A program made the translations under genes and the position numbers. From Nanobdellota archaeon (GTDB taxonomy: Archaea > Nanobdellota > Nanobdellia > Pacearchaeales > UBA12030), in contig JACZVS010000001.1 in the NCBI GenBank assembly GCA_022572525.1, positions 1 through 29,562 of the forward strand: DNA of 29,562 nt, written 5' to 3'. A model generated the notes under the pieces. It did not search any database and was not told the origin of the DNA. It saw only the letters and a list, made by a program, of their open reading frames with translations. Shown here one piece after another: positions 1,268 through 17,382 of the stretch. Numbering within the stretch: the first letter of the stretch is position 1; every line of letters begins with the position of its first letter.

Positions 1268-1377
1268 GCCTCGGTAGCTCAGTGGTAGAGCGCACGGCTG
1301 TTATGCCCTTTTGGAAAAAGCTCAACCAAAAGTAAGCAGAGACCGTGAAGTCGGCAGTTCGAGTCTGCCCCGGGGCG
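1268..1377 (+). tRNA. tRNA-Asn(GTT) with 38-nt intron at 37/38 (intron 1304-1341)
   Basis: Acceptor GCCTCGG/CCGGGGC, D arm GCTC/GAGC, anticodon stem CACGG/CCGTG, T arm GGCAG-TTCGAGT-CTGCC; central BHB helix CTGT/GCAG with 3-nt bulges TA|T and AG|A; no encoded CCA. Confidence 0.95.
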
Positions 1378-5202: not shown

Positions 5203-5314
5203 TGCGCTAACCGGGAGTCGAACCCGGATATTCAGCTTTTTCCTTTCCTTCTTTGTGGAGCTTCTTAAGAAGGCCCTTGGGAAGCTGACATCTTAGCCAT
5301 TGGATTATTAGCGC
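5203..5314 (-). tRNA. tRNA-Gly(CCC) with 40-nt intron at 37/38 (intron 5238-5277)
   Basis: Reverse strand: acceptor GCGCTAA/TTAGCGC, anticodon stem TCAGC/GCTGA, loop TT-CCC-A|intron|A, T arm CCGGG-TTCGACT-CCCGG; BHB central helix TTCC/GGAA; no encoded CCA. Confidence 0.93.
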
Positions 5315-6743: not shown

Positions 6744-6792
6744 TCTCCTTTCGCTTTCTATATTGTAGTCTCTTATTAGTGATTACAGATAG

Positions 6793-6806
6793 AAGGATTT
6801 ATAAAG
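6793..6806 (+). promoter_or_regulatory. BRE/TATA box upstream of SLT gene leader
   Basis: AAGGA-TTTATAAA-G; predicted start near 6827. Confidence 0.6.
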
Positions 6807-10705: not shown

Positions 10706-12520
10706 ATGGAATCTGAAGATAGAGAAAATACGTTAGCTAAGAATTTGCATGAAGTCAGTAAGCGCAAGGAATCCACTCCTAGAGAAATTTCTCCCGAGTT
10801 GAAGAAAGAGCTTGCAAAGATTAAAGAAAAAATAGAGAAATTTAGTAAAGAGGTTGTTAAGAAATTCCCTTACATTATCTCAATTGGACTGCTCCCTACT
10901 CTTCCACCAATGCATCCTAAGCAAGGTTCTCCTGTTCAAGCTCCTTCCCCAAAAGATAAAGAAAAGGAGAAGCGAAAACCAGAAGTCATCATTGTCTTTC
11001 CAGACGATAAGTTAAAGGAAGTCAAGAAGCTTGAGAAGGATGTCGCTGAAATTGTGAAGAAACAGAATCTTGCCATCAATTTTTTCACTAGATCTCCTAA
11101 AGAATTATGGCAAACTTGTTTTGATGGCCACTTTGCCGAGATGGAAAGGATAAGCATGGCGTATCCTCTTCATGATAAAGGGGTTTTATCTGCGTTAAGG
11201 GTTGCCACAATCCATAAAAATCTTGTTCTCAGGAAGTTTGAGAAGTATGTCACCTCTTATGTAATTGCTGGGAGTCTTGTCAGAGGACAGGCAACGAAGA
11301 CAAGTGATATTGATATTTATGTTGTCATAGATGATACAGATGTTAAGAGGATGCCTCGGTTTGAGCTTAAAGAAAGGCTTAGGGCTATGATCTATAGTTA
11401 TGCTTTTGAAGCAAACGAAATTGCAGCTGCAAAGAATAAACTTTCTCCCCAAGTTTATATCCTTACTGAATTTTGGGATTCTGTGAAGGATGCGAATCCC
11501 GTAATTTTCACTTTCATCCGGGATGGAGTGCCTCTCTATGATAGGGGAGCATTTATGCCATGGAAGCGTCTTTTGCAAATGGGGAAGATAAAACCCTCTC
11601 CAGAAGCTATTGATAATTTTATGTTGTTAGGAGAGAAGCTAGGTAAGAGAGTAAAGGCAGATTTACTTAGAATTGCCACAGAAGACATTTACTGGGGAAT
11701 CATTACTCCAAGTCAGGCAGCTTTAATGCTTTATGGATTGCCTCCTCCAACCCCTATTGAAACAATTGACTTAATGGAGAAAACTTTTGTTGATAAAGAG
11801 AAGCTGCTCGAGAAGAAATACATAAAAATATTGGAGAGAGTTGTTGGTCTTTATAAGGATTATGAACATGGTAAACTGAAAGAGGTTAAGGGAAAAGACA
11901 TTGATGAGTTGCTCGTAGATGCCTCCTCTTATATTAAAAGACTTAAAGTCCTAGTTAAACAAATAGAAAAGCAAGCAGGAGAAAAAACCACTCTTCAACT
12001 GTATGATGATGCTTTCTCAATTCTCAGAAAAATTCTTGGAAACGGGTCAGAACAAATAATTGTTGAAAAATTTTATAAGGAAATAGTTAACAAAGGAGAG
12101 ATGCCTCCAAAAAGCTTGGTAGTTCTAAGAGAGATTATTAAGGCAAAACAAGACTATAAGAAAGGAAAGTTGAGCAAGCAAGAGATTGATAGGGTAAGAA
12201 GAGATGGTCAAGAGTTTATCTTTGCGATTACAGAATATGAACAGAGAAAGAATCTCATACTTACAGAGAAAGCAAGGTTTAAAGTAAAGATATCTGGAAA
12301 GCTAGCAGATCTCTATATTTTTGACGATGCGTATCTTATTTCTGGAGAAAAGAAGAAGGAAGTTTTGAGAGTCAATTTGAAAAAGAAGAAGTTAGAGGCA
12401 TCTAATCTTGATGAGGTGGCAGAAAAGCTTAAGAATGTTCCAAAGCAGATTGAAGTTACTCCTGAAAAGATTAATGAGATAAGAAAAATTATAGGTAAAG
12501 AGATAACGTTTCTCTTTTGA
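10706..12520 (+). CDS. Pol-beta superfamily nucleotidyltransferase with degenerate N-terminal NTase copy, HEPN-like bundle and helical C-terminus
   Basis: IAGSLVRG-x5-SDIDIYVVIDD; LYW..SxAAL..G HEPN-like helix (IYWGIITPSQAALMLYG). Confidence 0.8.
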   Translation: MESEDRENTLAKNLHEVSKRKESTPREISPELKKELAKIKEKIEKFSKEVVKKFPYIISIGLLPTLPPMHPKQGSPVQAPSPKDKEKEKRKPEVIIVFPDDKLKEVKKLEKDVAEIVKKQNLAINFFTRSPKELWQTCFDGHFAEMERISMAYPLHDKGVLSALRVATIHKNLVLRKFEKYVTSYVIAGSLVRGQATKTSDIDIYVVIDDTDVKRMPRFELKERLRAMIYSYAFEANEIAAAKNKLSPQVYILTEFWDSVKDANPVIFTFIRDGVPLYDRGAFMPWKRLLQMGKIKPSPEAIDNFMLLGEKLGKRVKADLLRIATEDIYWGIITPSQAALMLYGLPPPTPIETIDLMEKTFVDKEKLLEKKYIKILERVVGLYKDYEHGKLKEVKGKDIDELLVDASSYIKRLKVLVKQIEKQAGEKTTLQLYDDAFSILRKILGNGSEQIIVEKFYKEIVNKGEMPPKSLVVLREIIKAKQDYKKGKLSKQEIDRVRRDGQEFIFAITEYEQRKNLILTEKARFKVKISGKLADLYIFDDAYLISGEKKKEVLRVNLKKKKLEASNLDEVAEKLKNVPKQIEVTPEKINEIRKIIGKEITFLF

Positions 12521-14410: not shown

Positions 14411-14446
14411 AGAGAGAACCTTTTAGAAAAGGTTCATCAAAAAGAA
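14411..14446 (+). repeat. Palindromic interspersed element, copy A (occupies predicted 5' UTR of antiporter)
   Basis: AGA-GAACCTTTT-AG-AAAAGGTTC core (AGAGAGAACCTTTTAGAAAAGGTTCATCAAAAAGAA); TTTTTATA box at 14380-14387. Confidence 0.8.
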
Positions 14447-15505
14447 ATGTTTCCGAGTTTATGGATATCCCTTATTGCTTTAATTATCTCACTTGCTGTA
14501 TTAGTTAAGGGAGCAGATTTGTTTTTAGGTGCCGCCTCAAAGATTGCAAAGCATTTTGGAATTAGTGAATTTATTATTGGCTTGACCGTTGTTTCTGTCG
14601 GCACTTCTCTTCCGGAACTCGCAACCGCTATCACAGCATCTTTTGCAAAGACCCCTGAAATAATAATGGGTAATATTATTGGAAGCAATATTGCTAATAT
14701 TGGTTTAGTTCTCGGCATAACATTAATTTTTGTAACTGTTCTAATAAAGAAGCACGAATTTGATAGAATTTATATTATGCTGCTCTCTATTCTTTTATTT
14801 GCACTTTTTGCATCTGATCTTCAAATCTCAAGATTTGAAGCTGCGATCCTGCTGGCCTCCTTCCTATTGTATTTTGGTGGCTTCTTTAAGGTGAGAGAGA
14901 AGATTAAGCATTACAAACAATATTTTTCTTCTGCACTTGAATTAAGGGGCCTTCTCAGTTTAAAAAAACTGAGAGAGATAAGAGCGGCAAGGAAAAAAAT
15001 GCATGCTGGCGAGAGAATTTCCAAAAAGCTAGCAAGAGAGGCATATCTCTATGAAATGGTTAGAGAATCTGCAGTATTGGTAGCCGGAATTGTTCTTATT
15101 ATAGTAGGATCAAAGTTCACAATAGACTCTGCAGTTGATCTAGCCTTCTTCTTAAATGCTCCACAAGTAATAGTCGCTGCTTTGCTCATAGCTGTCGGCA
15201 CTTCTCTTCCAGAACTTTTTGTTAATCTTACCGGCATCAAGAAAGGCTACACAAAGATGGTTCTCGGCACTATTCTCGGCTCCAATATTTTTAATATCTT
15301 AGCAATAATAGGAATCGCGGGGATAATTAGTCCTATAGCTATTACAAAATCAACGCTAACGTTCTTGATTCCAGCCATGCTGATCTTTTCCTTTATACTC
15401 TTCTTTATCTTAAGGAGAGGTCACAAGATAGGAAGAATGGAGGGAATTTCTCTTACAGTACTATATGTGCTCTTCTTGCTAGGGCTCCTTTCCTCTTCCT
15501 TCTAA
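14447..15505 (+). CDS. Ca2+/cation antiporter, CaCA family (YrbG-like)
   Basis: Two alpha repeats GTSLPE followed by GNIIGSNIAN and GTILGSNIFN; ten hydrophobic segments. Confidence 0.93.
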   Translation: MFPSLWISLIALIISLAVLVKGADLFLGAASKIAKHFGISEFIIGLTVVSVGTSLPELATAITASFAKTPEIIMGNIIGSNIANIGLVLGITLIFVTVLIKKHEFDRIYIMLLSILLFALFASDLQISRFEAAILLASFLLYFGGFFKVREKIKHYKQYFSSALELRGLLSLKKLREIRAARKKMHAGERISKKLAREAYLYEMVRESAVLVAGIVLIIVGSKFTIDSAVDLAFFLNAPQVIVAALLIAVGTSLPELFVNLTGIKKGYTKMVLGTILGSNIFNILAIIGIAGIISPIAITKSTLTFLIPAMLIFSFILFFILRRGHKIGRMEGISLTVLYVLFLLGLLSSSF

Positions 15506-15543
15506 TACACGAATTATTCTAACTGGCCAGTAATAACATATCG

Positions 15544-15556
15544 AAAGGTTTATAAA
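15544..15556 (+). promoter_or_regulatory. BRE/TATA box
   Basis: AAAGG-TTTATAAA; predicted start near 15579. Confidence 0.65.
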
Positions 15557-15574
15557 GGCTAGGTACATGTTAAA

Positions 15575-15671
15575 GGTAGGTTAGGTGGAGTTCAGGCTTG
15601 CTTGAGCAAAGCTTAATCTATGCCACGAAGCCGAGTTCTTCGGAGCAAAGCTGAGGGGCATCTTTATTTTT
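15575..15671 (+). ncRNA. Candidate structured 5' leader or small ncRNA
   Basis: GC-richer island with two hairpins, duplicated GAGCAAAGCT and a trailing U-tract; no family recognised. Confidence 0.35.
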
Positions 15672-15682
15672 AATTGAGGAAA

Positions 15683-16381
15683 ATGCCAGAAAGTTTAGAA
15701 CGACTTGTGGAAGAGCATAAAAAATTAGATGCTCTTATAGGGGATGTTGAGCGAGAGCCATTTAATCCTGCTGTTGGAAATAAATTGAGAGCACTTTATG
15801 TTCATAATGCCGTTACAGATGCTGAAAATCTAGAAGCTGCTGCTGCAGCTACAATGGTAGTTGACAACTATGATGACAGAGAATTTTATGGACAGGTTTA
15901 TACTTTGCGTGGAGAAAAACAAAGAGAAATAGCCGACTCTGCAGAAGCAGATGCTGACAAGATTTACAATTCCCTTCCTGATGAAGCTCTTACTGGATTA
16001 GCAGCCAATGTATTGCCAGTTCCTAGTGATGGGGAGGCAGCTGAAGCTCATAGATCATATAGAAAAGTAAGTGACACACTTCAGGAAGGAAATGGAGAAG
16101 TGATTATAAAATACTTGAAGACTCTTCTTAAGGAAAGTTTCGTAGATGCCTTGGATGCTGATCGCCTTAAACTAGCTTATGGTGGAGTTGTATCGGTAAA
16201 ACGAGCCGAATTTTTGTCTAAGTTCGCAGGAAATGGTGGATTGGATCGTAGCAAAATTGTAGATTACTTGAAGAGTGTAAGAGCTGCAGGAGATGCTGAT
16301 AGGTTACAATTCTACTTTAGTCTAGGAATGGCTGCAGGAGATGCTGATAAAGAACAAAACCTGCATCTAGAAGCAGCTTAG
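15683..16381 (+). CDS. Orphan Ala/Asp/Glu-rich helical protein
   Basis: 232-aa ORF from ATG 15683 preceded by GAGG; followed by T-tract. Confidence 0.75.
   Translation: MPESLERLVEEHKKLDALIGDVEREPFNPAVGNKLRALYVHNAVTDAENLEAAAAATMVVDNYDDREFYGQVYTLRGEKQREIADSAEADADKIYNSLPDEALTGLAANVLPVPSDGEAAEAHRSYRKVSDTLQEGNGEVIIKYLKTLLKESFVDALDADRLKLAYGGVVSVKRAEFLSKFAGNGGLDRSKIVDYLKSVRAAGDADRLQFYFSLGMAAGDADKEQNLHLEAA
16283..16349 (+). repeat. Perfect 19-bp in-frame direct repeat (GCTGCAGGAGATGCTGATA at 16283 and 16331)
   Basis: Read directly; encodes AAGDAD twice, 16 codons apart. Confidence 0.9.
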
Positions 16382-16433: not shown

Positions 16434-16472
16434 AGAGAGAACCTTTTTTCTAAAAAGGTTCATTAAAAAGAA
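16434..16472 (+). repeat. Palindromic interspersed element, copy B
   Basis: AGAGAGAACCTTTTTTCTAAAAAGGTTCATTAAAAAGAA, near-identical to 14411-14446. Confidence 0.85.
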
Positions 16473-16509: not shown

Positions 16510-17382
16510 TCATTCCTCAAGAGCTCTTACAAGCTTTGCCATTTCGCCTACAAATGAATCTACCCTATCGATGTATGCATCGATAGTTGATCCTTTTATT
16601 ATCTTGACTTCTCCATGAAGAATTTTGTGCATTAATGTGTACATTTCGCGGTAGAGATCAACATATCTCTTTTTCAGTTTTTTCTCTTTTGTAAATGTTT
16701 CATAAAGCAAGAAGGCAATGTGCTCTGGAGATGGAGGGGGTTTTCCTGCTGCCATTAAAGCTGCATGTGATGAGTCTACACATGCCCAGTAAAGGCCTTC
16801 TATTACAGCGAGCATCGATGTTCTACTTCTTGCAATATGTGCAGGACTTCTTCTTAGAGCAACATAAATAGCTTCTGGCGAAGGTCTTATCTTCCCTCTT
16901 TGCAGTAAAATTTTGAGTGGAGTGAAAAAGCCTCCAAAATCAATTAATGGCTCGCCGTAACGAATAATATTTATCACAACAGGCTCTCCTCTTATCATTT
17001 CCTCCCACCATGTTGTTAATCTTACTGTGTTTATGTGCAATTTTTTCGCATAACTTTGCGAAGCAACAAGGATTGCAAGCTCTTCTCGATACCAAGCAAC
17101 CATTTCAGCTGTCCAATCAACATTTGCATCATCAACAATTACAATGATGTCGATGTCACTTTTATGAGCTGCAGTTCCTTTAACTTGCGAACCAAATAGA
17201 ACTATGCTTTTAATGACTTCTGCACTAAATCTCTTGTAAACTTTAGCTGCAAAATCTTCAGCAATTCTTCTTTCAGGAGTTATTCTTCCAATAGGCTTTT
17301 CAACTTTCCTAACTCTTGGTTTTGAATGTGTACGCCTTTTTTTACTAATGATCTTTGCCCTTGCCCCTTTTTTCCTTCTCAT
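16510..17382 (-). CDS. Nucleotidyltransferase + HEPN-like fusion, paralog of 10706-12520
   Basis: LFGSQVKG-x5-SDIDIIVIVDD; LYWACVDSSHAALMAAG; shares LLQ.GKI.PSPEAI with the 604-aa protein. Confidence 0.82.
   Translation of the reverse strand: MRRKKGARAKIISKKRRTHSKPRVRKVEKPIGRITPERRIAEDFAAKVYKRFSAEVIKSIVLFGSQVKGTAAHKSDIDIIVIVDDANVDWTAEMVAWYREELAILVASQSYAKKLHINTVRLTTWWEEMIRGEPVVINIIRYGEPLIDFGGFFTPLKILLQRGKIRPSPEAIYVALRRSPAHIARSRTSMLAVIEGLYWACVDSSHAALMAAGKPPPSPEHIAFLLYETFTKEKKLKKRYVDLYREMYTLMHKILHGEVKIIKGSTIDAYIDRVDSFVGEMAKLVRALEE

Follow-up and report, generated by a model that had tools for sequence, protein, structure and literature searches.

A conserved hairpin RNA and proposed 5′ leader in one family of Pacearchaeales

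What occupies the gap of 177 nt that separates a Na+/Ca2+ exchanger gene (14447-15505) from the gene for a 232-aa protein that begins at 15683 in a Pacearchaeales genome? The window, by which we mean the whole 29,562-nt stretch of DNA analyzed, belongs to an archaeal assembly of 579 kb that is 76% complete (G000), whose proteins have close relatives labeled Candidatus Pacearchaeota; the element in the gap is also covered by DNA contigs from other samples. An original prediction, made from the letters of the window, placed here an RNA switch with mutually exclusive pairings ahead of an orphan gene. We find that the gap houses a real and conserved structured RNA, narrow in range and apparently not described before, and we give roughly even chances to the reading that it is a protein-binding 5′ leader acting in cis on the following gene, with transcription, a partner and an effect that we infer. 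The features of the locus are collected in Table 1.

Table 1. Features of the exchanger-to-downstream-gene region, in window coordinates
Feature	Positions	Strand	Basis or remark
Na+/Ca2+ exchanger gene	14447-15505	+	PF01699, E 1.6e-56; ends before the promoter
Imperfect palindrome, TWAC-N6-GTAR type	15520-15533		upstream of BRE
Archaeal promoter (BRE 15542-48, TATA box 15549-56)	15542-15556	+	kept in orthologs
Hairpin 1, conserved core	15577-15620	+	pair probabilities 0.8-0.9; 8-sequence alignment
Hairpin 2, optional	15621-15660	+	minimum-energy fold of 15578-15672
U-rich tract after the last hairpin	15663-15671	+	possible partial terminator or anti-Shine-Dalgarno arm
Shine-Dalgarno-like GAGG	15676-15679	+	TTGAGG also in L272 and G002:C2
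Downstream gene, 232-aa protein	15683-16381	+	fast-evolving Pacearchaeales family

Fold and predicted start of the RNA

The sequence words on which the switch had been built are all present, namely a 7-mer (15596-15602), two 10-mers (15604-13 and 15643-52), ATGCC/GGCAT, the CCGAG/TTCGG hairpin, TCAG/CTGA and the U-tract. The two alternative folds drawn from these words have pair probabilities of 0.00-0.01 and best constrained energies of -17.7 and -20.8 kcal/mol, against -30.5 kcal/mol for a structure of two hairpins that is both the minimum-energy and the centroid structure from the predicted start. Pair probabilities are mostly 0.8-0.9 in this two-hairpin fold of 15578-15672. The proposed switch pairings are not kept in any of the four lineages tested (L160, L175, G003 and, partly, strain X1), and a strain variant damages them at 15599 and 15621-22. 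Hairpin 1 stays intact in this variant, whose four changed sites are the base that opens each of the two loops, the CUUG tetraloop (now CUCG) and 15621-22. Of the originally predicted pairings, the ATGCC/GGCAT helix of the second domain survives in the supported fold and the others do not. The switch logic as first drawn is not supported, its mutually exclusive pairings being thermodynamically negligible and unconserved.

The 80-nt stretch as first cut was not unusually stable compared to shuffles (z -0.43) because the first 15 nt, which form the 5′ arm, were missing. The whole RNA with its 5′ arm (from 15577) has a z of -2.4 on the plus strand and -0.2 on the minus strand, while hairpin 1 reaches -3.4 on the plus strand only; G-U pairs and tetraloops (UUCG, CUUG, GCAA) are likewise consistent with a plus-strand RNA only. 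Hairpin 1 is composed of a 9-10 bp basal helix, a 3x3 loop in which GGA (15587-89) faces AAA (15608-10), an upper helix of 7 bp and a G(CUUG)C tetraloop. Hairpin 2 runs from a basal helix through a tandem GA/GA, 3 bp, a 3x3 loop (CGA/AAA at 15632-34 / 15647-49) and 4 bp to a C(UUCG)G tetraloop. Both G(CUUG)C and C(UUCG)G belong to known stable tetraloop families with a preferred closing pair. The two 10-mers are identical, as had been noticed, but the real repeat is longer, with a shared 6-mer in front: the unit GAGTTC-loop-GAGCAAAGCT is present twice, at 15588-15613 and 15633-15652, which was reached in 0 of 100 shuffles. The duplicated 10-mer forms the 3′ side of a repeated module made of a helix, a 3x3 purine loop (NGA/AAA), a second helix and a stable tetraloop.

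The BRE/TATA promoter upstream of the RNA is conserved in orthologs both with and without the RNA. In G000, the ATG of six genes that use this type of promoter falls at TATA+29 to +31, so the start of transcription is predicted at 15578-15580. The RNA starts at TATA+28/29 behind the same promoter class in all seven complete homologs, the distance at which leaderless genes begin in G000. Of 404 TATA-like sites in that genome, one is matched by a descriptor of the rod, against none of 1616 shifted controls. What stands of the original prediction is a structured RNA ahead of the gene, with its predicted start upstream of the structure. The palindrome at 15520-15533 occupies the same aligned place in 11 promoters (downstream-gene family and RNA), and related sites are found at about 9 other G000 promoters, one of them ahead of a TrmB-like gene; judged from its placement, it is possibly a transcription-factor site marking a promoter class. 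GTAAC-type sites upstream of the BRE mark this class at 15520-15556 and 6760-6805 of the window and on G000 contigs C24, C39, C50, C12 and C100, where the genes that follow include those for a TrmB-like regulator and an HTH protein and several variable lipoprotein-like ones; ex4484_26 (L161) has such a promoter in duplicate before two adjacent genes. A link to the exchanger gene was dropped because that gene lies upstream of the promoter and is missing at four loci (L272, G002, G003 and G004).

Between the RNA and the gene, the U-rich tract had been taken for terminator-like. It is clear in the window, L175 and G003, hence in three of the six tails compared, whereas L160 and L272 have a weak one and G002:C36 has none; the longest U run ranges from 2 to 6 across homologs, and a terminator-like tract is not conserved. 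A CTTTA tail is common to the window, L175, G003 and L272. Termination in archaea depends on U-tracts and on aCPSF1, which reads them (PMC8716108), so the tract can be explained without a hairpin terminator or antiterminator; partial termination at it is possible. In the window's lineage, 15657-66 in the 3′ arm of hairpin 2 can pair in silico with 15675-87, covering the Shine-Dalgarno sequence and AUG (P 0.93 once the start region is included). This alternative is not conserved among homologs, and the RNA structure has no conserved overlap with the ribosome-binding site. A leader-peptide attenuator was also rejected: an RTG at +8 is found in six lineages, but it reads GTA in strain X1 and GGG in G004, and the resulting upstream frames, 5-20 aa long, have no common sequence past residue 3.

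Homologs, covariation and distribution

Homologous loci were traced by following the downstream gene and the exchanger gene. Hairpin 1 was found at eight loci from seven lineages, all in one Pacearchaeales family (f1). Six of these loci precede the downstream-gene family (the window, L160/L176, L175, L272/L273, G004:C107 and G002:C2, the last at a cut end), one copy lies between valS and aRF1 (G003:C15) and one before an unrelated 146-aa ORF (G002:C36). Five homologs came from outside the training set of the covariance model. Scores were 52.5 bits for L175, 34.1 bits for G003 and 34 bits for L272; for G002:C36 (17.5 bits) and G004 (10.9 bits), confirmation came from the fold and from the position relative to the promoter.

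An alignment of all eight copies of hairpin 1 supports the structure: 95.2% of cells pair and both partners have changed in 7 of the 13 pairs, a level reached by 0 of 500 shuffles, while the best slid control comes to 52%. Homologs and covariation, which the original prediction had named among its checks, were both found. The covariation is strong but carries no formal probability because it rests on seven related lineages, and kin can beat a shuffle control. While the helices covary, the loop bases GA/xA stay. The parts of hairpin 1 that are kept are the 9-10 bp basal helix, a loop of RGA opposite RAW and 3-4 bp above it, whereas the apical part is free in length and sequence; about 7 bases of the rod are invariant. 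In all seven complete homologs the GA/xA loop lies 10 bp from the 5′ end, and it is repeated: the number of stacked loops in hairpin 1 is one in the window, two in L160, G003 and L272, and three in G004. The loop reads GGA opposite GAA in L175 and G002:C36 and GGA/AAA in most others, usually following a U-G pair. Hairpin 2 is present in three lineages only (the window, L160 and L175) and absent from G002, G003, G004 and L272. Its 5′ strand is invariant and has no credible second copy in family f1, and because its pairs vary on one side only, it is less well supported than hairpin 1.

The RNA is carried by 4 of 5 genomes of family f1, with one copy in G000 (76% complete) and one or two in relatives, all at a start site. 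That the element might be a generic dispersed repeat, a concern raised with the original prediction, does not agree with the single G000 copy in register with the predicted start. Outside f1, no copy turned up with covariance models R1-R3 in 150 genomes sampled at order level and 150 at class level, although these models are weak (G004 10.9 bits) and may have missed diverged copies; exact-pattern scans of genome, metagenome and viral contigs gave chance matches only, mostly in coding sequence, and a promoter-anchored pattern run on 401 genomes hit at the control rate outside the known loci. Twelve out-of-family orthologs with a visible promoter have short unstructured leaders and no RNA. Within the family, three orthologous loci are without it (G001, ex4484_26 and L271). 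The protein tree, too weak at deep nodes for counting gains and losses, groups G001 and ex4484_26 with the RNA-bearing L160 (96/96), and the short leader of G001 retains nine bases of the 5′-arm consensus. This grouping and the 9-nt remnant suggest that RNA-less in-family loci reflect loss, not insertion elsewhere.

No known RNA family had been recognized in the original prediction, and our searches agree: Rfam 15 gave no match at gathering level and none at E<=10 for 15500-15720, and the G003 copy gave chance-level matches only. A literature search found no regulatory leader RNA for Pacearchaeota, and to our knowledge few have been described in archaea beyond k-turn leaders.

Several other elements were recorded in these genomes. 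An AT-rich dispersed hairpin repeat with T-run/A-run arms of variable length is found at 14411-14446 and 16434-16472 of the window, in about eight more intergenic copies in G000 and inside a tRNA intron on C59; G001 also has one in a tRNA intron. Two tRNA genes of the window (1268-1377 and 5203-5314) contain introns of ~40 nt at the anticodon loop. The intergenic stretch G000:C89:2950-3050 is GC-rich and apparently structured; it is distinct from the RNase P RNA, whose gene is on C68. In G138, loci L003, L009 and L011 contain REP-like, multi-copy intergenic repeats of GAG(C/T)(G/A)AA(G/A)CG words.

The downstream gene and the role of the RNA

The downstream gene is not the orphan it was thought to be. 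It has 31 relatives (cluster representatives), is found in 21 of 71 related genomes and defines an order-wide family. The protein is all-helical (model pLDDT 93) and acidic (pI 4.8), belongs to no Pfam family and retrieved nothing in a single-sequence homolog search. Fold searches of the model (Atlas feature search, Foldseek, VIA-align and Atlas shape search) yielded no known fold, the best results being a VIA-align Z of 6.2 over 79 residues and an Atlas shape TM<=0.34. Autoregulation is not supported because the protein is acidic and has no known RNA-binding fold. In a near-identical metagenome contig (L156:3353-4051) the gene is split into 105 + 122 aa, through either an assembly error or a broken allele. 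Nucleotidyltransferase-domain genes are found at 16510-17382 and 10706-12520 of the window; the former, whose C-terminal part we take to be HEPN-like, is a constant convergent neighbor of the downstream-gene family across the order.

A cis-acting leader is favored since six of the eight loci lie directly before one gene family, and folding from +1, a fixed and repeated noncanonical loop and a variable remainder argue for a protein site and not for a metabolite pocket or switch. In the mechanism that we propose, the leader would begin at +1 and fold during synthesis into one stable rod, to which some lineages would add a second hairpin. Along the rod, at intervals of 3-4 bp, lie between one and three symmetric purine loops of 3x3 (NRA facing RAW), which most likely form stacked sheared purine pairs. 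These loops would be the recognition site of a protein, perhaps bound in several copies, and binding would set the output of the gene 10-30 nt downstream by acting on the initiation of translation, on how far transcripts read through the U-rich tract or on the stability of the mRNA. Weighing against a leader, two RNA copies stand before unrelated genes, and the gene family keeps going without the RNA in G001, ex4484_26, L271 and the 12 out-of-family loci. In all five genomes aRF1 keeps its own promoter, including G003, where an RNA copy lies ahead of it; this copy may therefore stand alone as an RNA or be a relic. We consider it unlikely, though worth stating, that the element represents a new class of archaeal RNA, in which the stacked 3x3 sheared-purine loops make a countable multivalent protein-docking rod, with one to three sites tuned by lineage, which would serve as the leader of a DPANN-specific gene and as free decoys in a small post-transcriptional regulon with its own RNA-binding protein.

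The G003 copy also bears on whether the element is an independent gene for a small RNA of 50-90 nt, made from this promoter, that would terminate or be cleaved at the U-rich tract and would work in trans as a protein decoy or particle RNA, possibly together with the co-transcribed protein, which read-through would produce. Between valS and aRF1 a U-tract directly follows hairpin 1 and the aRF1 promoter lies further on, and one or two copies per genome, the CTTTA tail shared with three relatives and the RNA-type tetraloops would all suit such a gene. However, the start codon of G002:C36 is ~10 nt behind the hairpin with no U-tract, the G003 copy could be the leftover leader of a lost gene, and six loci abut one gene family for which no second promoter was found at those loci; we regard a small RNA gene as somewhat unlikely. 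A 5′-terminal stabilizer, in which the hairpin masks the 5′ end from 5′-dependent decay and the purine loops are favorable filler with no partner, seems quite improbable, as a plain helix would serve equally, but all seven complete homologs have the GA/xA loop at a constant 10 bp from their 5′ end, and the loop is repeated. The helix base that coincides with the predicted start site, the freedom of the apical part in length and sequence and the dispensability of the RNA in several lineages are what such a stabilizer would explain.

We hold it very unlikely that the RNA is a ligand-sensing riboswitch or attenuator with hairpin 1 as sensor and hairpin 2 or the U-rich arm as expression platform. 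The position as a leader downstream of the predicted start and the ability of the 3′ arm of hairpin 2 to pair with the Shine-Dalgarno sequence and AUG would fit, but the first-proposed pairings fail, the Shine-Dalgarno alternative is limited to one lineage, a plain rod that has ~7 invariant bases and whose apical part is free to vary makes a poor metabolite pocket, and there is neither a metabolic gene downstream nor an Rfam match. We give hardly any credence to the idea that a dispersed repeat or a small mobile element once inserted behind the promoter and left this RNA as its remnant, as could be suggested by the patchy presence among orthologs and by hairpin repeats with GAGC(A/G)AAGC words in DPANN genomes (G138). 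It is already largely refuted by the single copy in G000, the precise alignment with the start site at every locus, the strand-specific G-U pairing and the 9-nt piece in G001, which suggests loss and not insertion.

A protein-binding leader, our preferred reading, would have a reach of one family and seven lineages. Clear boundaries, covariation, a small repeated unit and natural pairs of orthologs with and without it make this leader accessible to in vitro tests for which the organism need not be cultured. The RNA also offers a first way into an order-wide family of proteins that is modeled with confidence and has no known fold.

Comparison with known systems

Reduced forms of standard RNAs were rejected, as G000 has a standard SRP RNA (140 bits, C72) and RNase P RNA (141 bits, C68) elsewhere; a likeness to SRP helix 8 depends on CAGG/AGCA in the window, which is not conserved. 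A fluoride riboswitch was dropped because a 3′ partner matching the crcB consensus is missing, and box C/D and H/ACA readings were considered and dropped. The methanogen-type SECIS combines an asymmetric loop (GAA/A) and G-C clamps, and the gene that it serves encodes a selenoprotein (PMC11881835). It resembles our RNA as an archaeal UTR hairpin whose purine-rich internal loop is the recognized part. A SECIS was rejected: the loop here is symmetric and neither neighboring gene has an in-frame UGA, both ORFs being open under table 11.

Leaders bound by L7Ae at k-turns are known from archaeal l7ae and related mRNAs (PMC5539422, PMC6298567), and a k-turn is defined by a bulge of roughly 3 nt followed by tandem G:A and A:G pairs (PMC6298567). 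Like these, the RNA would be an archaeal 5′ leader hairpin with non-canonical G-A pairs and a proposed protein control of the downstream gene. Unlike k-turns, the loops of hairpin 1 are symmetric 3x3 loops without a bulge in all homologs and are repeated up to three times, and unlike L7Ae leaders, this hairpin is stable without protein and excludes the Shine-Dalgarno sequence. Hairpin 2 can be read in a k-turn register (bulge CAC, GA/GA), with a 3-bp C-stem in L160 and L175 and a G-G mismatch in the window; the symmetric register pairs better. Separately, family f9 (L189, L190, L209, L186; G129, G199, G485) has a conserved leader motif near the start site, ending in AGAGTTCTGAT just before the ATG of several unrelated genes. 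A k-loop drawing of this motif is possible, and it may be the sign of an L7Ae regulon.

The triple sheared-GA 3x3 internal loop 5′GGA/3′AAG was reportedly described by NMR by Chen, Turner and colleagues in 2005, and the hairpin loop here is presumably the same motif: L175 and G002:C36 have exactly GGA/GAA, and most others GGA/AAA. That motif is a structural one, whereas here it would be the repeated unit of a leader, with a geometry proposed from sequence. Bacterial multivalent protein-binding RNAs include the CsrB/RsmZ sponges and the repeats of type III antitoxins. No CsrA- or ToxN-like partner is evident for the RNA described here, and the motifs of CsrB/RsmZ and the antitoxins lie in hairpin loops or pseudoknots, whereas the motif here lies in stacked internal loops. 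All have in common a short motif in variable number on one RNA beside or upstream of a gene, and by this analogy the reiteration of one to three loops would resemble multivalent protein sites.
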